64,000 bases of DNA from a bacterium (lineage in GTDB: Bacteria; Patescibacteriota; Minisyncoccia; UBA6257; JAGOQP01): positions 49 through 64,048 of the forward strand of contig JAKAHY010000006.1 of the NCBI GenBank assembly GCA_021814695.1, in the 5' to 3' direction. Made by a program: the position numbers and the translations under genes. The notes below the pieces were generated by a model. The model saw nothing but the letters and a program-made list of their open reading frames with translations. It did not search any database and was not told the origin of the DNA. Below are positions 2,250 to 47,407 of this stretch, one piece after another. Every line of letters begins with the position of its first letter. Positions within the stretch are counted from its first letter, which is position 1.

Positions 2250-3189
2250 TATAAGGAGCAAGAATGAATTAGGGAAGCGCATTTCACCGAACAAACTACA
2301 ATTTCCTAAAACTCTCCAACTCATCAATGATGCATTGTCTAATTTTGATAAACAGTGGTACGACAGTGAACGCTCTGAGCCAGAGAAGGGAAAGTTTGTG
2401 CGAAGCGCTGTGGGAACTTCTCTTGGAAAATTACTTAAGCTTATAGACAGAAAGATTCTTGCTCCATACGATAGCTTAATACCGGATTTTATCTTTGGTG
2501 GTTTGTCTGGAAAAAGTCATATTCAGGCTGGCAGTTATTTATTGGGAAATAGACGCGAGAGAACATTGCTACGCCTAGATGTCTTTAGATTCTTTGAACA
2601 GATCCGGGAGCAAAGAGTTTTCAATTTCTTTTATGCGAAGTGCGGATGTAGTCAAAAAGCTGCTCGATTGATTTCTGGCCTTTGTTGCGTACCTTTGGGC
2701 CAAAAAGGATCTGGGTGTACTCAAAAAAGTTTGGCTCGTGGTTTTGCTACGTCGCCACGTCTCTCTATATGGTGCAACTTGGATATATTTTTAAGGTTGA
2801 GTTGGATGGTAAAGAAACAACTTCGTAACCATGATCCCAAAATTGCTGTTTATATTGATGATATCGGCATTACAGCTAGCCGGGTAAAAAAAGAACAAAT
2901 TGAAAAAGTGGCGCTACTCGCAGTGAAGATACTCACTGATTTTGATAGCAACCAATCACTCCCGATCAATCCTGAGAAAAAGGAAATTCTATCTGGTGCT
3001 GGCAAGATGAAACATCTCGGACTGAAATTGGGTAGAAATAAACTATCTATTGGAAATAAGGCGTTTTCTAAACTATTAGAAGTTAGACGTAAGTTAAAAA
3101 GCTCAGTATCGAAACGAGAGAGGTCGCGGCTAGTAAAGAAATACAAATCATACAAGAAATATAAACACCAGGTTATGAGGGCCAAATAG
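2218..3189 (+). CDS. Small (323 aa) retron/Abi-like reverse transcriptase with basic C-terminal tail
   Basis: RT motifs FGGLSGKS (1), LRLDVFRFFEQI (A), VFNFF...LISGLC (retron-like spacer, cf. Ec86 VFNLF...LTELC), ATSPRLSIWCNLDI (B), VYIDDIGI (C, YxDD), HLGLKLG (E); no maturase or endonuclease domain. Confidence 0.75.
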   Translation: MFRAQRYPRINIRSKNELGKRISPNKLQFPKTLQLINDALSNFDKQWYDSERSEPEKGKFVRSAVGTSLGKLLKLIDRKILAPYDSLIPDFIFGGLSGKSHIQAGSYLLGNRRERTLLRLDVFRFFEQIREQRVFNFFYAKCGCSQKAARLISGLCCVPLGQKGSGCTQKSLARGFATSPRLSIWCNLDIFLRLSWMVKKQLRNHDPKIAVYIDDIGITASRVKKEQIEKVALLAVKILTDFDSNQSLPINPEKKEILSGAGKMKHLGLKLGRNKLSIGNKAFSKLLEVRRKLKSSVSKRERSRLVKKYKSYKKYKHQVMRAK

Positions 3190-3246
3190 CCAATACTTCA
3201 TCACTACATATTATAATATTAATAAAAATAATTAGGATTATTGCTT

Positions 3247-4158
3247 ATGGCAAATAGTCATGATGCGAAATGGAAAAAGTTTGAGAAGGTTGTATATGAT
3301 ATACAAAAAGAATTAGCTCCTGATTCTGAAGTTAAGCTAGATGACGCTATCACAGGAGAAGACTCTAAGGTATCTCGCCAAATTGATATCAGCATCCGCC
3401 GCAATATAGGACAATACTCAATTCTGATTGTTATCGATTGTAAGGACTATGGTGTGCCGATCGACGTAAAAGATCTTGGTGAATTTGCTACTCTAGTCAA
3501 AGACGTAAGAGCTCACAAGGGCGCAATGATTTCTAGCAAGGGTTTTACGCCAGCCGCAGTAAGCTTGGCAAAAGCTCGTGGCATTGACACATTCACATTG
3601 ATAGATACTGAAAGCGTTGATTGGAAGGCATATGCCACAATTCCTGTATTATTGAGGAGTACTAATCTAAAAAGTTTTAGAGTAATATACAAAAACTTCC
3701 AAATTCTTCCTAGGGAGATTGTAGTCGCCGACCACAAGAAGCTGAAATTATATTCTCAGCAGCAAAAATTTATAGGCACCATTGGACGCTTAGTGCTTGA
3801 TAAATGGAATAATAAAGAAATAGAACATGCGTCTGGAGAGCACGAGGTTTTATTATCGGAAAATATTATGTTGGAAATAAATAGTCAGAAGTTTGGGCCG
3901 TTAGATGTAGCTGCTGTTGTATTGGTAGAGGAACACACTTATTTTAGCGATCTCCCGGTACACCTGAAAGGTTTTCATGATGCGCAAAAAGGTGGTGTAA
4001 TTACTAAATCGTTCGAAACGGACAAAATTTGGCCGGCAAAGATAGAGCAGGGATTAGTAGAGGGTTGGAGAGAGCTTAAGAATCCTACCGAACTATCGAT
4101 ACAACCACTTTTAGAATTCTATGTGTATGATTCCTATCCTAAAGAGGAGGTGGAGTAA
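3247..4158 (+). CDS. Mrr-like (restriction endonuclease, PD-(D/E)xK) N-terminal domain protein with unknown C-terminal domain; putative effector of the RT system
   Basis: ILIVIDCKDYGVPIDVKDLGEFATLVKDVRAHKGAMISSKGFTPAAVSLAKARGIDTFTLID matches the Mrr_cat pattern (QCK...V...F.G....KG.F.T.S.FT..A...A...I.LIDG). Confidence 0.65.
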   Translation: MANSHDAKWKKFEKVVYDIQKELAPDSEVKLDDAITGEDSKVSRQIDISIRRNIGQYSILIVIDCKDYGVPIDVKDLGEFATLVKDVRAHKGAMISSKGFTPAAVSLAKARGIDTFTLIDTESVDWKAYATIPVLLRSTNLKSFRVIYKNFQILPREIVVADHKKLKLYSQQQKFIGTIGRLVLDKWNNKEIEHASGEHEVLLSENIMLEINSQKFGPLDVAAVVLVEEHTYFSDLPVHLKGFHDAQKGGVITKSFETDKIWPAKIEQGLVEGWRELKNPTELSIQPLLEFYVYDSYPKEEVE

Positions 4159-4240
4159 AAAATGTAGATTATACTTTATAAATATGCTACGAAGGCATTA
4201 ATTTTCTTACCAACCCAACCATTTTTTGTAACAATTTTAT

Positions 4241-4723
4241 ATGAAATCAAACAATGATTTGGTAAAAGATATCAGAGATAAAATAGTATTCGTAACTGCA
4301 ATTGCAATTTTCTTTTTACCCTTCATGTATTCTGCATTCAGAGCTGTAGAAATGAATGATGCTAAATCGAATAGTGAGGTGCTTCCTTGGGGAGTCGGAA
4401 TTGCTTTTTATATACTCATTTACTTTTTTGTAGGTATGGTAAATGAAAAAACAAACACCCGCTGGCTCGATTGGATTAGGGGATTCATTGTTGCTGGCAC
4501 AATTGCCTTTGTTATACCCATATTTTGCGAAGCTCTCTACTATAACAAGCCACTTCCGGCATACATATATTGGCCCTTTTTGATTTCGATTGGAGCAATG
4601 GCATTATTGCCGCTCTTAACATTTATCTTGGTGCTAGGCTGTCTCTATTTGGAAATAATCCGCAATATTGTCTTAATAATGATTAAGAAAATTAAACACA
4701 AGAAAACAATCAGATTGCAGTAG
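4241..4723 (+). CDS. Small polytopic membrane protein, unknown function
   Basis: 4-5 hydrophobic helices; follows the RT/Mrr pair. Confidence 0.5.
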   Translation: MKSNNDLVKDIRDKIVFVTAIAIFFLPFMYSAFRAVEMNDAKSNSEVLPWGVGIAFYILIYFFVGMVNEKTNTRWLDWIRGFIVAGTIAFVIPIFCEALYYNKPLPAYIYWPFLISIGAMALLPLLTFILVLGCLYLEIIRNIVLIMIKKIKHKKTIRLQ

Positions 4724-4902
4724 GTTGTTATAGGATTGAGACTTTGCATCTACCTGCGTGTTGCGTCCTTTTCATCAAAATAGGTTCTAATCTGTTCCAA
4801 TCCCTTCCGCAGTAAGAACTTTTTATCGGGAGACCCGAGTGATATCGACAAAGATGTGGTCTGTTCGCCTAAGCATTTCAAAAATATCTAAACACTTAGA
4901 AA

Positions 4903-5646
4903 ATGGAATTCAATCAAAACAACAACATTGTTAGACTTTGTCTTCGGGGGATAGGCATGGAACAGAAAGATAAACCAGAAGAAGCAAGCAGATTGTTTCT
5001 TCAGGCCTGGGATGAAGCGACAAACGATTTTGAAAAATTTATTTCAGCTAATTATATAGCCCGACATCAGAAAAATGCTTCCGACAAATTACAATGGCTC
5101 GAAACGGATTTACGGCTTGCATTAAAAATCAACGACGACACAGTAAAGAGTGCTTTTCCTCCTCTCTATTTAAATATCGCCAAATGCTATGAGGAGTTGG
5201 GCAATTTTGATAGAGCGAAAGAGAATTATGCATTGGCAACTTCGTTTAAGGACGAGCCCACAGATAAAGGCCCTTTTTATCACGGGACGAAAGCGGACTT
5301 GAAAGTTGGAGATTTGCTGGCGGCAGGAGGCGATTCTAATTACAAATCCGAAATCAAAATGAACCATATTTATTTTACCGCTCTTGTTCATGGGGCGGGA
5401 CTAGCCGCTTCGTTGGCAAAAGGCGATGGACGAGAACGTGTTTATATCGTTGAGCCAACAGGAGGTTTTGAAAATGATCCTAACGTTACAAACAACTACT
5501 TTCCCGGCAATCCGACGCGCTCGTATCGCTCTCAAGCGCCATTGAAAATCGTCGGCGAAGTAACCAATTGGATGAAAATTACACCCGAGGAACTCCAAAA
5601 ATGGCGGGAAAAGTTAGCTAACAATAAAGGAGAAATTATAAATTAA
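4903..5646 (+). CDS. TPR-like N-terminal domain fused to Arr-family (rifampin ADP-ribosyltransferase-like) domain
   Basis: C-terminal half FYHGTKADLKVGDLL...SNY...HIYFTA...RVYIVEPTGGFENDPNVTNNYFPGNPTRSYRSQAPLKIVGEV is near-collinear with Arr-2 (FYHGTKA..GDLL, IVEPTGPFEDDPNLT, FPGNPTQSYR, PLRIVG). Confidence 0.7.
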   Translation: MEFNQNNNIVRLCLRGIGMEQKDKPEEASRLFLQAWDEATNDFEKFISANYIARHQKNASDKLQWLETDLRLALKINDDTVKSAFPPLYLNIAKCYEELGNFDRAKENYALATSFKDEPTDKGPFYHGTKADLKVGDLLAAGGDSNYKSEIKMNHIYFTALVHGAGLAASLAKGDGRERVYIVEPTGGFENDPNVTNNYFPGNPTRSYRSQAPLKIVGEVTNWMKITPEELQKWREKLANNKGEIIN

Positions 5647-5693
5647 TTTTTGAAATGCCATTGACCGAATCAGGATTCTAACCGAGATTTGAA

Positions 5694-5725
5694 ACAAAAA
5701 TCCGCAAATAGCGGAATTTTTGTTT
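5694..5725. terminator. Bidirectional hairpin between convergent genes
   Basis: caaaaatccgcaaatagcggaatttttg. Confidence 0.4.
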
Positions 5726-10248: not shown

Positions 10249-10277
10249 TTGACATATATATGTATATATGCTAATAT
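10249..10277 (+). promoter_or_regulatory. Sigma70-like promoter TTGACA-17-TAATAT
   Basis: ttgacatatatatgtatatatgctaatat upstream of the GC-rich ORF. Confidence 0.45.
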
Positions 10278-10338
10278 GTAGTTTGAAATATTGCCAACAT
10301 CCAGCACATTCCAAACGGACAGCAGAAAGGAGCAAGCG

Positions 10339-10752
10339 ATGAATAACAAGGTGGAGTCTGTGGACTATCAGGAGTCCCTTTCGATCAAAGTCGGGAAGTT
10401 TCTTCTCTTGAAGGGATTCGATCTTGCCTCATGCACCGGCCTCGCGTTGGATTCGCTGGTCGAGACCTGCTCGCTCGGTATCCTGCGTGAGGATCCCGAA
10501 GCGAGACCGAGAACGTACTTCTTTGGGCTCATCAGGCGAGACCCGCGCCGGGTCTTTCTCGGCACGGTCTGGTTCAGCAACAGTATGCGCGGTGCGACCG
10601 AGCAGAACTGGGTATTCGATGCGTACGGACGCAAGCATGTCAATTTGGTCAGGCAACTGGCCGAAGAGATGGCTTCGGCCTTCAACGTCAAGATCGCCCT
10701 TCGTCTCGTGCATGAGCAGCCCGACGTCGAGACTTACCTCTCCGACTACTAG
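10339..10752 (+). CDS. Hypothetical protein, atypically GC-rich (~58%), inside the tRNA-Leu-associated insert
   Basis: Long ORF with GC3-rich codons, bounded by duplicated tRNA 3' ends; ORFs in other frames and on the opposite strand are likely compositional artefacts. Confidence 0.45.
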   Translation: MNNKVESVDYQESLSIKVGKFLLLKGFDLASCTGLALDSLVETCSLGILREDPEARPRTYFFGLIRRDPRRVFLGTVWFSNSMRGATEQNWVFDAYGRKHVNLVRQLAEEMASAFNVKIALRLVHEQPDVETYLSDY

Positions 10753-42742: not shown

Positions 42743-43039
42743 TTAATCGAAAATCGGCCGGAGTCTTTGACCCCGCACCTTTTCACTGCTTAGGCTGCGC
42801 CTGGTTATTATTTTCAGTTTAGAATAAACACGGCCATAAGATTTTAGATTTCTTTCCCTATCAATAACATCACCTTGTGAGACATAACCTTCTAGATAAA
42901 TAATTAACCATTTATCGCTTATTTTGGCATACATAGGCTTACCGCTGACATATCCTAATATTCCTCTCGAAACATCGTTTGTATAACCAATATGCAACTT
43001 GTCATAGATTTCATTTTTGAGAACATAAACATAATACAT
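42743..43039 (-). CDS. Small GIY-YIG nuclease (copy 1); the ORF reads through the downstream repeat
   Basis: MYYVYVLKNEIYDKLHIGYTNDVSRG...YLEGY GIY-YIG motif. Confidence 0.7.
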   Translation of the reverse strand: MYYVYVLKNEIYDKLHIGYTNDVSRGILGYVSGKPMYAKISDKWLIIYLEGYVSQGDVIDRERNLKSYGRVYSKLKIITRRSLSSEKVRGQRLRPIFD

Positions 43040-43074
43040 ACATAAATAACAAAGCAGTGGAAAGGTGCGGGATT
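42771..43074. mobile_element. GIY-YIG gene bracketed by inverted repeats ccccgcacctttt (42771-42783) and aaaggtgcgggatt (43061-43074)
   Basis: Repeat family read directly; the same repeat pair brackets the second GIY-YIG gene. Confidence 0.5.
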
Positions 43075-43111
43075 GACACAACCACCACTTTTCTAGTAGT
43101 ATCTTTCCATT

Positions 43112-43438: not shown

Positions 43439-43495
43439 GACGCGGATTTATACGCCTGCCTGCCGGCAGGCAGGGATTAAACGGATTTATGCGAA

Positions 43496-43526
43496 TAAAA
43501 AAAGAGGGCACTGCCCTCTTTTTCAT
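43496..43526. terminator. Bidirectional terminator aaaaaaagagggcactgccctctttttcat
   Basis: Stem gagggca/tgccctc flanked by A and T runs. Confidence 0.55.
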
Positions 43527-43530
43527 TTTG

Positions 43531-43616
43531 TGCGCGGGAGAGGACTCGAACCTCCACGGGACGTAATGCCCGCTACCACCTCAAGGTAGTGCGTCTACCA
43601 GTTTCGCCACCCGCGC
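43531..43616 (-). tRNA. tRNA-Leu(GAG)
   Basis: Reverse complement gives acceptor gcgcggg/cccgcgc, anticodon loop ttGAGgt, long variable arm, T-loop ttcgagt. Confidence 0.8.
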
Positions 43617-43905
43617 ATTATTAACCAAATCTTGAGATATTTTGCCTTAATGGCGGCAAATAATCAATAGGAAAGTGATAAAAACGTCAGATTTTAGTAG
43701 CTTGACAGAATTATTATAGTATGCTAATATATGACCATAATCGGAGTGGAGGAGGAATTGTCCAAGTCCACAATCCGATCAGCACATTGACCGAGAGATC
43801 GTCAGCCGGCGAAAGTTGGCAAGCGATTTCTCACTATCACGTCCCGATTGGAGTCGGGACAGCCCTCCTACGTGCGGGAGCACTACGGAGGACAAGGGAG
43901 ACAAC

Positions 43906-44649
43906 ATGGCCAAGAAAGCGACCAAGCAGAACCCCGCAGTCAACCTGAAGGTGTACGTGAAGCTCGACCCCGAGGCGCAGGTGATGTTCAACCACCAGCG
44001 TCGCGACCAGGCCGTCAGCTTCCCCGCCGTGGTGGCGACCGTCGCGACCATGATCAAGGGCGGCAGCGACATCACCGGCGCGCAGGAGGACGACAAGTAC
44101 GTCGTCACCCTGGACGCCGGACAGCTCGCCGAGGTGTTCGCCGAGGCGCGCGAGTACCAGGCGACGCTCCCGGCCACCGTGGAGATCGCCAAGCAGGCGA
44201 TCTCGACCGCCGATCAGGCGATCGAGTTCGCTCGCAAGAACAACAGCGGGCTCGACCTGTCGCAGGCCGAGGCCAAGCTGAGCACGGCGCAGGCCATGCT
44301 CAAGAGGCTGGTGTTCGGCAAGAAGAGCGACGACTTCCGCGAGGTGGTGGAGACGGCGCACGATGCCGCCAACACCGCCAAGCAGGCCGTCGTCGACCTG
44401 CTCAAGGTCAAGGCCGCCGGCCTCGCCAAGGAGACCGACACGCTCGACGAGTTGTCGCTCGTCCTCTCCGACCTCCCCAGCGACCTCGACCAGGCCCGCA
44501 AGGCCTTGGTCGAGTTCGTCAAGACGGCTCGTACGCTCCGCGTCCCGGCCCGCCCGGCCAACACCAACAAGCCGAACGATGGCCACCTGCGCGAGCGCGT
44601 CGGAACCGGCGTGTTCGGCCGCACCGGCGGCTACACCGGCCGCAAGTAG
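43906..44649 (+). CDS. Hypothetical protein, ~65% GC (foreign), good GGAGGA RBS
   Basis: Strong GC3 codon bias in a 40% GC genome; all six frames are open, the other five taken as artefacts. Confidence 0.55.
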   Translation: MAKKATKQNPAVNLKVYVKLDPEAQVMFNHQRRDQAVSFPAVVATVATMIKGGSDITGAQEDDKYVVTLDAGQLAEVFAEAREYQATLPATVEIAKQAISTADQAIEFARKNNSGLDLSQAEAKLSTAQAMLKRLVFGKKSDDFREVVETAHDAANTAKQAVVDLLKVKAAGLAKETDTLDELSLVLSDLPSDLDQARKALVEFVKTARTLRVPARPANTNKPNDGHLRERVGTGVFGRTGGYTGRK

Positions 44650-44694
44650 GCCCTCTCACCCCTGACGAATCTTTCGTCAGGAACTCCAACAACC

Positions 44695-44742
44695 CGAACC
44701 TCAGGCAATCCCGCCTGAGGTTCTTACTTTTTTCCTGGGAGC
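44695..44742 (+). terminator. Rho-independent terminator gaacctcaggcaatcccgcctgaggttcttactttttt
   Basis: 11-bp stem plus T-tract. Confidence 0.6.
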
Positions 44743-44758
44743 ATAGCTCCAATCGCTG

Positions 44759-44775
44759 AAAGGTGCGGGATTTTT
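44759..44775 (+). repeat. Orphan copy of the AAAGGTGCGGGATTTTT repeat
   Basis: Identical to the right-hand repeats at 43061, 45807 and 47431. Confidence 0.6.
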
Positions 44776-44808
44776 ATTAAATACGGATTTATACGGATAC
44801 GAGAGTAT

Positions 44809-44837
44809 TTGACACAACAATGATTTTGGTATATTAT
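44809..44837 (+). promoter_or_regulatory. Sigma70-like promoter TTGACA-17-TATTAT
   Basis: ttgacacaacaatgattttggtatattat, preceded by direct repeat atacggatttatacggatac. Confidence 0.5.
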
Positions 44838-44857
44838 ATAGACAGTATATTCAAATA

Positions 44858-44921
44858 GTAGGAATGAGCTGACTAACCATATGAATCCGTGTTGCAATGT
44901 GAATAGTCAGCTCGTTCCTAC
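44858..44921 (+). promoter_or_regulatory. 18-bp-stem hairpin in the 5'UTR just upstream of the RBS of ORF 44948
   Basis: gtaggaatgagctgacta...tagtcagctcgttcctac. Confidence 0.5.
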
Positions 44922-44947
44922 AAAGAGCAGAAAGAAAGGAGAATGCG

Positions 44948-45718
44948 ATGTACGACGATAGGAGAGAGGTTAAAGACCCGATGTTCCAGTTTTTTCTGGA
45001 ACAGCAGCGCCACCAGGGTGCCGGATTTGGAATTATGTCCGAGATTTGCACCCTTTCCCGGGAACATCACCAGGCGGTTCTCAAACAGGACTGGCCGGGA
45101 GCTGATGAGCTCGAGGACAAGATGCGGGCCAAGTGGATGGCTTTGACCCAGAAGAACATCATGGGCCGGACCCACATCAAGATTGCCGAAATGTCGGCAA
45201 CCGAGATGCTGGAAGCGTTTTTTGTCCGGGAGGTGTTCTGGGAGATTGCTACAAATCGGACATCGAGTTTCAATCCTTCAGATTTCAAGAAGTACGCGGA
45301 GACATGGTCGGAAGCGTTCCAACTTCCGAAAGATTCTCCCATCGATTACCAGTGGATTATCGCCGGCTGGTTGGACGCCGCCAGTGAGATCTACAAGATG
45401 TTGGTGATTCTGATCAACAGCAGGTATTACTCGGATGGAGATAAATTGTCCATCTGGGAGAGCTACTGCGCGCTCCTCTCTGCTGTTCATGAGGCTTTTG
45501 CTCTCTACGAGCTGATCGCCTCCAGCGTCATCGACAACGGGCAGGGACGTGTGCCCTGGCCAATGACGTTTCGCGGCAAGATGCAAAAGCTCCAAAACCA
45601 CATTACCGAAACTCACGAAAGGATTCAGTATTATCGTGAGCGGACCGCGGACAGGGTGGATCGCGAGGTCCTCATGTCCAAGATCGAAGCCGTGATTGGT
45701 CTCCTTTCCCGCAAGTAA
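44948..45718 (+). CDS. Hypothetical protein (~52% GC)
   Basis: ORF with AAAGGAG RBS and downstream terminator ccgggttgcgaaagcaaccca-T7 at 45726-45750. Confidence 0.55.
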   Translation: MYDDRREVKDPMFQFFLEQQRHQGAGFGIMSEICTLSREHHQAVLKQDWPGADELEDKMRAKWMALTQKNIMGRTHIKIAEMSATEMLEAFFVREVFWEIATNRTSSFNPSDFKKYAETWSEAFQLPKDSPIDYQWIIAGWLDAASEIYKMLVILINSRYYSDGDKLSIWESYCALLSAVHEAFALYELIASSVIDNGQGRVPWPMTFRGKMQKLQNHITETHERIQYYRERTADRVDREVLMSKIEAVIGLLSRK

Positions 45719-45752
45719 GCGGGGCCGGGTTGCGAAAGCAACCCATTTTTTT

Positions 45753-45819
45753 ATCCCGCACCTTTAATTTTCAATTAAAACAGGACGAGTAAAACTCGAG
45801 CAAACTAAAGGTGCGGGAT
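45753..45819. mobile_element. Empty inverted-repeat pair atcccgcaccttt...(41 bp)...aaaggtgcgggat (miniature, gene-less element)
   Basis: Same repeats that bracket the GIY-YIG genes, here with a 41-bp spacer. Confidence 0.45.
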
Positions 45820-45860
45820 AATCCTCCGAAGCTTTATGCAAAGGAGGATTCATAGACCGT

Positions 45861-47060
45861 TTGCCTTTAGGTGATATTTTTCATAGAATAAAACTTACCT
45901 ACACCAGCTTTATGAAAAGAGAACACATTGTCGCCAAAGATCCGGACAGCGAAAAACTCCTTTCCGAACTCAAACAAAGGGAAGACACTAACGGGCTAAG
46001 AATGCGTCGGTTGATTGAACTTCCGGATTTATCCAGAAAAGAAAATTCTCCCATAAAATTTATAGTAGACAGGATTTTGGGGATCAAAGATTTTGAAAAT
46101 TTTGATATATTGGAATTTCCCGAAATTGTCAGTGTGCGGGACAATTTTGACTTGCTTAACGCTCCGGCCGACCACCCCAGCCGAAAAGAAACCGATACTT
46201 ATTATGTGGACAAAGACCATGTTTTAAGAACTCAAACGACCGTAATGTGGCCGTATTATCTCCAGCGGCCGGACACTTTGGATAAACTGAATAACGAAGG
46301 AGAGGTCGGCTTATTGAGCTATGGCAAGGTCTATAGAAAGGACGAAATAGACAGGAATCATTTTCCGATATTTCATCAGGTGGACGGACTTTATATTTGT
46401 AAAAAAGAGAAAAAGATTTTGGGAATTCCCGAATTGCAGGAAGTGCTTTCGGCTATTACTAAAGCTATCTACGGAGAATCGGTTGAATATAGATTTTTGG
46501 AAGACACATTTCCTTTCACGGATCCAAGCACTCAGATTGAAATTAAGGTGGGCGATGCATGGCTTGAAGTTGTCGGTGCCGGAGTTGTTCATACTCAAGT
46601 TTTAAAAAATTTGAATATTGACCCGGAAATTTACAACGGGTGGGCATTCGGTTTCGGGTTGGAACGCCTGGCAATGGTGAAAAACGGAATTTCCGATATC
46701 AGAGTTTTCTGGTCCGATGACCCAAGAATTACGAGCCAGTTTAAGGATATAAACAGTCAATATAAAGAAGTCAGCAAATTTCCGATGACTTACCGTGATA
46801 TTTCATTTGTTGTCAATAAAAATATAAGCCTCAACAATTATTACGAGATTGTCAGGGACTGTGCGGGCAACCTGGTTGAGGAAGTAAAGCTTTCGGACCA
46901 GTATGAAGACGTCATAAAATTCGGCGCGGATAAAATCAGTTATACATTCAGGATTGTTTATCGCTCTCCCGAAAGGACATTAACCAATGAAGAAGTTAAT
47001 CAGATTCAGGACAGGATTATTCAAAAAACAGCCCAGGAGTTGAATGCGACAATAAGGTAA
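45861..47060 (+). CDS. Monomeric (mitochondrial-type) phenylalanyl-tRNA synthetase: PheS catalytic core plus C-terminal FDX-ACB anticodon-binding domain
   Basis: Class II motifs (FPFTDPSTQIEI, WLEVVGAGVVHTQVL, GFGLERLAMVKNGISDIR) and C-terminal FPMTYRDISFVV...YTFRIVYRSPERTLTNEEVN resembling the PheT/mito-PheRS C-terminus. Confidence 0.75.
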   Translation: MPLGDIFHRIKLTYTSFMKREHIVAKDPDSEKLLSELKQREDTNGLRMRRLIELPDLSRKENSPIKFIVDRILGIKDFENFDILEFPEIVSVRDNFDLLNAPADHPSRKETDTYYVDKDHVLRTQTTVMWPYYLQRPDTLDKLNNEGEVGLLSYGKVYRKDEIDRNHFPIFHQVDGLYICKKEKKILGIPELQEVLSAITKAIYGESVEYRFLEDTFPFTDPSTQIEIKVGDAWLEVVGAGVVHTQVLKNLNIDPEIYNGWAFGFGLERLAMVKNGISDIRVFWSDDPRITSQFKDINSQYKEVSKFPMTYRDISFVVNKNISLNNYYEIVRDCAGNLVEEVKLSDQYEDVIKFGADKISYTFRIVYRSPERTLTNEEVNQIQDRIIQKTAQELNATIR

Positions 47061-47062
47061 AA

Positions 47063-47136
47063 TACCCGCACCTTTTTAATAGTGGGTCAATCATCAAAAT
47101 TGAAACAATAAGACATCCCACAAGTGCGGGATTTTT
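47063..47136. mobile_element. Second empty inverted-repeat pair tacccgcaccttttt...aagtgcgggattttt
   Basis: Read directly. Confidence 0.4.
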
Positions 47137-47407
47137 GTCCCGCACCTTTCAGCCACTGAAGGCTACGCCAGATCCTTCTTTTTAGATTTGAATAGGTTTT
47201 TCCATACGCCTTAAGTTGCTGCTCTCTATAGGAAGCATCGTATCGTGAGGTGTAGCCTTCAAAATAAACTAGAGACCATACATTGCTTCTTTTGGTGTAT
47301 ATCGATTTACCGCTATTATGTTCCGAAATTCTTTTAACTAAGTTATTTGTGTATCCTATATATACTTTGTTATCCAACTTATTTTTTAGAATATAAACAT
47401 AATACAT
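47087..47407 (-). CDS. Small GIY-YIG nuclease (copy 2, ~45% identical to copy 1)
   Basis: MYYVYILKNKLDNKVYIGYTNNLVKRISEHN...YFEGY. Confidence 0.7.
   Translation of the reverse strand: MYYVYILKNKLDNKVYIGYTNNLVKRISEHNSGKSIYTKRSNVWSLVYFEGYTSRYDASYREQQLKAYGKTYSNLKRRIWRSLQWLKGAGQKSRTCGMSYCFNFDD

Follow-up and report, generated by a model that had tools for sequence, protein, structure and literature searches.

We analysed a stretch of 64,000 nucleotides (nt) from contig JAKAHY010000006.1 of assembly GCA_021814695.1 (the window), which belongs to a bacterium of the candidate phyla radiation (CPR; Patescibacteria). Between tRNA-Leu(GAG) and pheS it holds two genes of aberrant guanine-plus-cytosine (GC) content, open reading frame 1 (ORF1) and ORF2. 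We have high confidence in the descriptive core of what follows: the two genes form a conserved, swappable cassette, its composition is maintained rather than inherited, and its second member is a partner with a TRAX fold. The fuller reading that we favour, with a probability of roughly 0.4, is that of a lineage-restricted, hypervariable two-gene nuclease cassette in which selection keeps the messenger RNA (mRNA) of the partner, ORF1, free of A/U tracts.

The composition of ORF1 is extreme. It contains 67.6% GC, the GC fractions at its first, second and third codon positions (GC1, GC2 and GC3) are 0.66, 0.41 and 0.956, and no more than 11 of the 247 codons have A or T in the third position. 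ORF2 deviates less (52.5% GC, GC3 0.685). Across the 43 ORFs of at least 200 amino acids (aa) listed in the six frames of the window, GC3 is 0.36-0.47 everywhere outside the island, except in two antisense shadow ORFs (0.57 and 0.53). A 1-kb GC profile shows a single spike at 44001-45000, with 0.596 against 0.35-0.50 elsewhere in the window. The original prediction, made from the letters of the window, had called the GC3 of ORF1 extreme, the composition of ORF2 atypical and tRNA-Leu(GAG) their neighbour; all of this was borne out, the tRNA being found at 43530-43616 on the minus strand by both ARAGORN and Rfam. An antisense ORF of 249 aa over the same DNA (43837-44586, minus strand; GC1 0.93, GC3 0.65) was rejected as the mirror image of the real ORF1 frame.

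The enrichment is not spread evenly over the island. From left to right, GC content is 22% in the first promoter (P1), 55% in the leader, 68% in the ORF1 coding sequence (CDS), 55% in the 3' untranslated region (UTR), 38% in the spacer and 26% in the second promoter (P2). Inside the cassette, promoters have 22-26% GC and spacers 31-38%. The GC enrichment ends at the transcript edges, and the promoters are AT-rich and typical of the lineage.

Sharp composition boundaries of this kind, together with the many homologues that lie on contigs of only ~1 kb, might suggest an assembly chimera in which a fragment of a high-GC organism was joined to a CPR contig, the alternative that the original prediction had put beside its own. 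The junctions are, however, reproduced base for base: positions 43600-45900 are identical to the window in six independent assemblies from different samples and assemblers (two from ENA, NCBI GCA_027423255.1 and three Logan single-run assemblies), and both composition boundaries are spanned by single short Logan contigs. The exact ORF1 protein is encoded on 13 contigs, and the same architecture recurs in at least nine lineages. The source material is from digesters, and includes the samples behind SRR13241953, SRR13240876 and ERZ27237563. For practical purposes a chimera is refuted.

By PheS, the closest named relative of the window is Candidatus Wolfebacteria (77% identity), and GTDB representatives place it in the Paceibacteria/Parcubacteria. 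Five of the six readable relatives have the gene order rplS, tRNA-Leu(GAG), ORF1, ORF2, pheS, gap, in host genomes of 34-47% GC. At least nine lineages of Paceibacteria type (Wolfebacteria-like) have the cassette between tRNA-Leu(GAG) and pheS, namely the window, L007, L008/L009, L015, L017=L021, L022, L019/L020, L090 and L091 (L numbers denote related loci). Whether they have the cassette or not, all relatives carry the tRNA gene between rplS and pheS; in the cassette-less relatives L035, L036, L032 and L028 it directly precedes pheS. Among 65 GTDB relatives, the carriers are L021 and L022 only.

These relatives bear on the origin proposed at first. The island had been read as a recent horizontal acquisition from a phage or an actinobacterium. 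The horizontal part stands, in that the cassette is accessory DNA exchanged among related CPR genomes. The recent phage or actinobacterial part does not: the genes recur in orthologous CPR genomes, in the same place and with the same composition, a finding that had been named beforehand as an argument against recent transfer, and there are no phage matches.

In every cassette lineage the first gene has 62-68% GC and a GC3 of 0.81-0.96, despite the fact that it belongs to one of two unrelated families. The window carries the family we call ORF1-A, whose orthologues in L007, L014, L016, L008 and L091 have 64-67% GC and a GC3 of 0.87-0.96. The second family, ORF1-B, fills the first slot in L017=L021, L022, L019 and L090 (62-65% GC, GC3 0.81-0.86). 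Homology between the two was tried and rejected, with an hhalign probability of 0.2%. The ORF1-A protein is predicted to have a small alpha/beta domain at its N terminus, together with a helical bundle and a C-terminal tail that is disordered and rich in arginine and glycine (R/G), the last with the conserved pattern LRERVGT..GRTGGY.GRK. ORF1-B proteins are 213-261 aa long; their centre is rich in Cys and His, and they also contain a coiled region and a basic tail.

Both genes are rare in public data. Word-indexed searches of 5.8 billion protein clusters returned 7 relatives of ORF1 and 3 of ORF2, and an exhaustive search of 1.84 billion representative proteins with hidden Markov models returned only 21 relatives of ORF1, none of them traceable to a high-GC taxon. 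All six ORF1 family members whose contigs are readable beyond the gene lie in CPR-type contigs of 34-47% GC. The AlphaFold model of ORF1 (predicted local distance difference test, pLDDT, 75) had no match in the PDB or BFVD at E <= 0.001, and the protein had none above noise in Pfam, PHROG, PADLOC or NCBIfam; its matches in PADLOC-DB v2 were at noise level (E = 0.007-0.02, over short stretches). Searches for ORF1 in GTDB representative genomes, in IMG/VR and, with tblastn, in GenBank phages found no matches, nor did those for ORF2 in viral sets (IMG/VR; phage tblastn), and PHROG held nothing significant for either protein. A scan of JGI metagenomes with the ORF2 alignment found only the already known L009 contig, in a search whose confirmation step used a divergent first sequence. 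The ORF1 family is under-annotated, because gene callers choose the wrong strand in three of the loci: public calls set the homologue on the minus strand in L008 (7632-8447), L009 (3-275) and L091 (3660-4577), with products of 271-305 aa and a GC1 of 0.8-0.9. The true gene lies on the plus strand with a GC3 of 0.86-0.89 and, in L008, starts with GTG.

We next turn to the second gene. The AlphaFold model of ORF2 is all-helical (pLDDT 88, predicted template modelling score 0.81). The top 16 PDB matches found by Foldseek are all NeC3PO, AfC3PO, human C3PO or mouse/human translin, each with a probability of 1.0 and with TM-scores of 0.50-0.56 when normalised to the query and 0.59-0.75 when normalised to the target. 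Four acidic residues, E86, E89, D143 and E147, are invariant in 11 of 11 members of the ORF2 family. They form an ExxE...DxxxE tetrad spaced as in NeC3PO, where the catalytic residues are E82, E85, D117 and E121 (PMC5100593). A profile of the eight short-type relatives aligns its aqElvE and DaGsEl segments to AIELLE and DAVGEL of AfTRAX; in the family alignment A6 these columns hold E86/E89 and D143/E147, and the A6 profile aligns only the DxxxE part to AfTRAX. A profile that includes the 19%-identical L007 gene links ORF2 to proteins of 221-247 aa, one of which JGI labels a 'predicted translin family RNA/ssDNA-binding protein'. The family falls into two deep types with ~20% identity, and the long type, that of the window, is distinguished by a C-terminal helix extension of ~35 residues and an insert at residues 120-135. 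On the structure model, ORF2 has the translin/TRAX (C3PO) fold with an acidic tetrad and represents a new, divergent bacterial branch of the superfamily. Because it keeps the four acidic metal-binding residues, ORF2 is probably a Mg2+-dependent nuclease acting on single-stranded nucleic acid.

Compared with C3PO, including the archaeal homo-octamers AfC3PO and NeC3PO, ORF2 shares the all-helical translin fold, the tetrad and the size (221-256 aa), but its sequence is extremely divergent. It also differs in being an accessory, hypervariable gene of two deep types that is always paired with a GC-rich gene. Prokaryotic translin homologues have been reported from five archaeal phyla and Chloroflexi, and thus not from the CPR/Patescibacteria (PMC5100593). 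A full-text literature search returned no relevant paper joining translin to Patescibacteria.

ORF1 and ORF2 each have their own near-consensus sigma-70 promoter, long structured leader and terminator, and the 298-nt spacer between them holds the terminator of ORF1. Transcription is predicted to start at ~43737 and ~44844. The elements around the first gene stay the same when the gene itself is exchanged. A TTGACA-N17-TGCTAATAT promoter is kept before both ORF1-A and ORF1-B cassettes, and the two also have in common the architecture of the 3' UTR, its linker ACUCCAACAACC and the terminator loop GCAAUxxCGC. Where two terminators had been predicted behind ORF1, both hairpins are indeed present; the one at 44661-44681 lacks a U-tract, and the one at 44696-44723, followed by TTACTTTTTT, is a canonical terminator. 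In the leader of ORF2, the hairpin has conserved arms, GAGCUGACUA/UAGUCAGCUC, in which L019 shows compensating changes, and a variable loop, often with CGGATTTA-type repeats. Pairing between the 5' and 3' UTRs, as in mRNA circularisation, was tried and rejected: at eight loci RNAduplex gave z-scores of -3.0 to +1.4 against shuffles, at inconsistent positions.

The leader of ORF1 has a 5' stem, AUCGG...CCGAU, with an inner hairpin, then a long hairpin in the middle, capped by a GAAA loop, then the hairpin GUCCCGAUUGGAGUCGGGAC, an extra hairpin specific to the window and the Shine-Dalgarno sequence. The window sequence folds with a z-score of -6.3 against shuffles. When a covariance model was trained on five sequences, it found L091, a locus outside the training set, at E = 9e-31, and also matched the ORF1-B locus L022 at E = 4e-9 and L017 and L019 weakly (E = 0.015); in 706 kb, including the rest of the window, it found no further matches. 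Over seven leader sequences 95% of the cells are paired, and in 13 of 38 pairs both partners have changed. This level was matched in 0 of 500 shuffles, and slid controls showed 30-51% pairing. Rfam 15 gave no leader match at its gathering score, and at E <= 5 the matches were at chance level, none of them in the leader. The leader is thus a well-supported structured RNA, hitherto undescribed, with strong covariation and no Rfam family. One earlier detail has to be revised here: the GGAGGA taken for a ribosome-binding site (43888-43893) sits within the window-specific hairpin, and the Shine-Dalgarno sequence kept in relatives is AAGGGAG, just downstream.

Within this framework both genes are mixed and matched. 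ORF1-A occurs with the long ORF2 type in the window, L008 and L015 and with the short type in L007 and L091; ORF1-B occurs with the short type in L017, L022, L019 and L090. The comparison of L008 with L091 is the most telling. Their PheS proteins are 99% identical, with synonymous divergence (dS) of 0.064, gap has a dS of 0.12 and the flanking DNA is 94-98% identical. Their ORF1 proteins are 56% identical, with a dS of 0.70 and nonsynonymous divergence (dN) of 0.43, at a GC3 of 0.87-0.90. The two ORF2 genes come from different deep types and share no DNA similarity. The sequences become highly identical again 13 nt before the start codon of pheS. Because genomes with 99% identical PheS hold deeply different cassette alleles, we conclude that the locus is hypervariable and exchanged by recombination. 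The dN/dS ratio is ~0.6 for ORF1 against 0.05-0.08 for pheS and gap. In this lineage only, a conserved orphan gene of 131-150 aa lies between tRNA-Leu and the cassette (L008 6863-7258, L091 2836-3288). It is part of the same diverged haplotype block as ORF1 (dS 0.67, dN 0.05), and the 131-aa gene has 41% GC and a GC3 of 0.35. Because a gene of normal composition, 41% GC, has the same dS as ORF1, the donor of the block was itself low in GC, and the two alleles grew apart within low-GC genomes.

A different island occupies the slot before pheS in L039 (Go_SlDig_bin_86, 2285-4835). It is GC-rich as well, lacks a translin-like gene and encodes a 434-aa orphan (63% GC, GC3 0.78) and a 185-aa Cys-rich protein, downstream of a 508-aa gene with a metallo-beta-lactamase fold (RNase J-like). 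The slot before pheS seems to attract GC-rich cargo of several kinds.

Why, then, is the first gene so rich in GC? Synonymous sites are informative here. In six ORF1-A orthologues, 37 of 42 conserved four-fold degenerate sites vary; 20 of the 37 toggle between C and G only, and A occurs in two. Turnover at synonymous sites has thus been extensive, yet they have kept G/C. A single A/U-only triplet, one AAA, is found in ORF1, against hundreds in pheS, and it is because GC3 is near 1 that the gene otherwise has no A/U run of more than 2 bases. Its folding energy is -0.49 kcal/mol per nt, compared with -0.20 to -0.32 for 32 control genes.

The simplest competing explanation is a donor signature: the cassette, or ORF1, would have been imported repeatedly and recently from a high-GC pool and would not yet have drifted to the composition of the recipient. 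Such a pool could be provided by Paceibacteria of high GC, by a GC-rich CPR plasmid or phage that has escaped sampling, or by a host organism that is itself high in GC. The locus is clearly exchanged horizontally and its distribution among relatives is sporadic. Paceibacteria with 53-61% GC (L047, L065, L071 and L073) fall into the same pheS-defined group, and P0023, a distant relative of ORF1, lies on short contigs of 64-65% GC and is GC-elevated at all three codon positions; these two observations count against our own reading. We nevertheless consider a donor signature unlikely. No homologue was found in an identifiable high-GC taxon among the 1.84 billion representative proteins, in GTDB representatives or in phage collections, and two unrelated CDS families would both need GC-rich pools. 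Homologous replacement needs similar flanks, that is, low-GC relatives, and the L008/L091 haplotype does hold a 41% GC gene with a dS like that of ORF1. The promoters and spacers of the cassette are AT-rich and lineage-typical, and four-fold sites are near saturation between orthologues, with A almost absent.

The locus recombines and the effect is strongest at synonymous sites, as would be expected if GC-biased gene conversion, or some other mutational bias acting locally at a recombination hot spot, were at work. The limitation of the enrichment to the transcript argues against both, the cassette spacers and promoters (22-38% GC) being without enrichment, and so does the 131-aa gene, which kept its low GC3 in the same recombining block. 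Moreover, a rise of GC3 from ~0.4 to 0.96 far exceeds the effects reported for biased gene conversion in bacteria. We regard this explanation as very improbable.

We think even less of a gating of translation at the codon level, in which ORF1 would depend on the supply of a tRNA, for example tRNA-Leu(GAG) for its 13 CUC codons, in analogy to bldA and TTA codons in Streptomyces. CTC is the commonest leucine codon of ORF1 (13 of 22) and the tRNA gene is its immediate neighbour, but the tRNA holds the same position in all relatives, including those without the cassette, and codons ending in G or C, at ~40% in ordinary genes here, are not rare.

The enrichment is limited to the transcript, unrelated CDSs converge on it and no donor was found. 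From these three points together we infer that selection on the transcript, that is, on RNA, keeps the gene GC-rich, and that this richness is not inherited from a donor.

In the reading we prefer, the first unit is a fixed expression chassis made up of a near-consensus promoter, a covarying leader of ~150 nt and a two-hairpin 3' UTR, into which unrelated, fast-evolving CDSs with basic or R/G-rich tails (ORF1-A, ORF1-B) are slotted. The second unit brings its own promoter, leader hairpin and terminator and the divergent translin/TRAX-fold protein. In a first step, G/C saturation of the third codon position is the way to be rid of every A/U run of 3 or more bases with no constraint on the protein, and it doubles the folding energy per nucleotide. 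Nucleases directed at single-stranded or A/U-rich RNA would then find the ORF1 mRNA hard to degrade, its message being armoured by the saturation of GC3, by the structure of its leader and by the double hairpin at its 3' end. In a second and weaker step, the pair would be a conflict module, either defensive or similar to a toxin-antitoxin system, with ORF2 as nuclease effector and ORF1 as variable partner (inhibitor, sensor or specificity factor), whose message would still be translated while ordinary AT-rich RNA is degraded. The basic tails of ORF1-A and ORF1-B look suited to nucleic-acid binding. A conflict role is suggested because hypervariability and a presence/absence pattern are typical of defence or toxin-antitoxin-like systems. 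Taken together, shielding and conflict are a mechanism we put forward tentatively and hold to be rather doubtful. A bolder version, which we judge quite unlikely, is a hitherto undescribed class of polymorphic RNA-conflict cassette in the CPR, in which a C3PO-like nuclease would degrade AT-rich single-stranded RNA from the host or a phage while the message of its interchangeable partner, with its extensive base pairing, is armoured; self and non-self would then be told apart by RNA composition and structure.

Several further observations weigh against our reading. The ORF2 mRNA is only moderately GC-enriched and has many A/U tracts, and the two genes form two transcription units, which sets the pair apart from classic type II toxin-antitoxin operons. 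Sequence support for membership in the translin family is weak: AfTRAX is the top PDB sequence match at E = 0.14-0.8, Pfam Translin (PF01997) is sub-threshold in 6 of 11 family members, with a best E of 7e-4, and ORF2 of the window has no Pfam match at E <= 1. As to structure beyond composition, shuffling of synonymous codons gives ORF1-A z-scores of -1.5 to -2.8, within the range of 32 control genes (mean -0.8, standard deviation 1.3, minimum -4.4), and an apparent excess from dinucleotide shuffling (z = -6.2) was discarded when it shrank to these values under the fairer test. The corresponding values are -3.4 and -4.9 for ORF1-B and -5.0 for ORF2, and structure beyond composition in these two is only suggestive. 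Finally, no match in PADLOC, PHROG, NCBIfam or Pfam backs a role in defence or as toxin-antitoxin. No toxin-antitoxin match was found in Pfam, NCBIfam or PADLOC for ORF1-A and both ORF2 types, or in Pfam and PADLOC for ORF1-B, for which the NCBIfam scan covered the L019 protein only; PADLOC-DB v2 held no match for ORF2, its short type, ORF1-B or the L039 protein.

It is also conceivable that the two genes are an ordinary accessory pair without a conflict role, GC-rich for the longevity of the mRNA only. ORF1 would then be an abundant nucleic-acid-binding or structural protein with a stable message, for instance in dormancy or slow growth, and ORF2 a housekeeping translin homologue in RNA processing, the process in which eukaryotic and archaeal translin/TRAX proteins act (PMC5100593). 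Near-consensus promoters, a hairpin near the 5' end and double hairpins at the 3' end are typical of stabilised, strongly expressed messages, and the R/G-rich tails of ORF1 suit this view too. Housekeeping genes, however, are not normally exchanged for non-homologous alternatives, most close relatives do without the cassette, and a dN/dS of ~0.6 fits it poorly, as does a difference at 44% of the residues in genomes whose PheS proteins are 99% identical. On balance we find this explanation improbable, if worth keeping in mind.

Among known systems, the closest conceptual precedent for the shielding we propose is MazF. A message without the preferred sites of that nuclease (ACA-less mRNA) stays translatable while bulk mRNA is destroyed. 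ORF1 resembles such a message in having no A/U-only triplets except one, and the mixing and matching of unrelated partners with one nuclease family is reminiscent of toxin-antitoxin systems. The differences are considerable: the cassette genes are separately transcribed rather than forming a bicistronic autoregulated operon, ORF2, with ~250 aa and a translin fold, is unrelated to MazF/PemK, and the hypothesised shielding would be compositional, through GC3 saturation and structure, instead of the avoidance of one motif.

The cassette also resembles hypervariable islands such as tRNA-adjacent defence islands, cdiA-CT/cdiI and rhs-CT/immunity modules. It occupies a fixed tRNA-side slot between conserved genes, is present or absent, has non-homologous alternatives and deeply diverged alleles in near-identical genomes, and has genes for GIY-YIG and LAGLIDADG homing endonucleases around it. 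It differs in lacking an integrase, an att duplication and a known defence or toxin domain, and in conserving its promoters and UTRs across alternative CDSs. Moreover, such modules usually have a lower GC content than the host or are foreign throughout, whereas here only the transcribed parts are GC-rich. With an unameliorated genomic island the cassette has in common the sharp contrast in composition, the accessory distribution and the adjoining tRNA gene, but its anomaly has been kept across at least nine lineages and saturating synonymous divergence, excludes intergenic DNA and has no donor lineage that we could find. An integrase-mediated tRNA-adjacent island or prophage remnant was rejected as well: there is no integrase among the called genes, no tRNA-derived direct (att) repeat, no significant PHROG match and no phage match. 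We class the region as a hypervariable accessory cassette, probably one for a nuclease, that occupies a hot spot beside a tRNA gene; its compositional anomaly behaves like an adaptive trait.

There is a warning in these results for the analysis of genomes. By the textbook, a gene with a GC3 of 0.96 in a genome of 42% GC would have been acquired recently from elsewhere; here the anomaly is old and conserved. That the anomaly is old, confined to the transcript and common to unrelated CDSs in one slot points to selection on RNA rather than to ancestry. They also place a translin/TRAX-fold protein with an intact catalytic tetrad in the Patescibacteria, in a hypervariable paired context that suggests a testable role. 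If the bolder version is correct, a bacterial translin/TRAX homologue would for the first time have a functional context, and extreme codon composition would be an adaptive trait of a single gene, held against genome-wide AT pressure.

Table 1 Features of the cassette locus in the window
Feature	Position	Strand	Description or basis
tRNA-Leu(GAG)	43530..43616	-	Left anchor of slot; ARAGORN, Rfam, relatives
Promoter P1	43702..43730	+	TTGACA, 17-nt spacer, TG-extended TAATAT
Structured 5' leader RNA, ~170 nt	43734..43905	+	Fold, covariance model
ORF1 (ORF1-A family), 247 aa	43906..44649	+	Composition, homologue searches
Two-hairpin 3' UTR	44661..44733	+	Hairpin 44661-44681; intrinsic terminator 44696-44723, then U-run
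Repeat debris in spacer	44759..44799	+	Half-site AAAGGTGCGGGAT; ACGGATTTATACGGATA directly upstream of P2 -35 box
Promoter P2	44809..44837	+	TTGACA, 17-nt spacer, TATTAT; 11/12 consensus positions; conserved in relatives
Long hairpin in ORF2 5' leader, 25-nt arms	44858..44921	+	z = -6.4
ORF2, 256 aa, 'long' type, predicted translin/TRAX (C3PO) fold	44948..45718	+	Structure model, family alignment
ORF2 intrinsic terminator	45727..45754	+	GGGTTGCGAAAGCAACCC, then U-run
Solo inverted-repeat hairpin	45751..45821	.	20-nt arms, 95% complementary; two copies of GIY-YIG-unit terminal repeat
pheS	45912..47060	+	Right anchor of slot

The surroundings of the cassette (Table 1) are rich in repeats. The original prediction had noted flanking copies of a host repeat family; the copies are there, but AAAGGTGCGGGAT belongs to small GIY-YIG gene units, as their inverted terminal repeat. 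Of its ten copies in the window, eight lie clustered at 42.7-47.5 kb (42770, 43061, 44759, 45753, 45807, 47063, 47137 and 47431), against a chance expectation of 2.2. Two small GIY-YIG genes on the minus strand, 42743-43081 (Pfam E = 1.5e-5) and 47087-47407 (E = 1.5e-17), are both bracketed by inverted copies. The sequence suggests a mobile GIY-YIG unit with terminal inverted repeats, of which the gene-less hairpin at 45751-45821 may be an empty unit or footprint. In L009, L019, L008, L090 and L091, GIY-YIG or LAGLIDADG genes are found at varying positions near the cassette.

Short repeats of the type CGGATTTA(T/A)NCG occur in the window at 43442-43497 and 44783-44799 and in the ORF2 leader loops of L007, L015, L017 and L022. 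We considered CGGATTTA as an operator specific to the cassette and rejected it, since its 15 copies, against 4.4 expected, are spread across the whole window. L019 has a C-rich tandem array of ~300 nt (5430-5720; units such as CACCTCACCCTCCA) between the ORF1-B terminator and the ORF2 promoter, which is absent from the other cassette loci. In the window and L019 the tRNA-Leu(GAG) gene is on the minus strand; in all other relatives examined (L008, L017, L021, L022, L035 and others) it shares the plus strand with rplS and pheS, an arrangement that implies small local inversions at the left border of the cassette.

A distant member of the ORF1 family, P0025 (L088), lies at a different position on a CPR-like contig, with a GC3 of 0.67 against 0.23-0.32 in its neighbours, which have ~35% GC. 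Upstream of it are two strong promoters (4044-4437), the first of which (TTGACA-N17-TGCTAATAT) drives a GC-rich structured segment of ~200 nt that ends in a terminator-like hairpin and could be a small RNA or a leader. The window itself holds a second GC3 outlier, a 137-aa orphan ORF at 10339-10752 with 56% GC, a GC3 of 0.75 and no Pfam match. It directly follows tRNA-Cys and tRNA-Leu(TAA), is driven by the same type of promoter, TTGACA-N17-TGCTAATAT, with a leader of ~60 nt (the whole feature spanning 10249-10752), and may be another example of the same GC-rich phenomenon.

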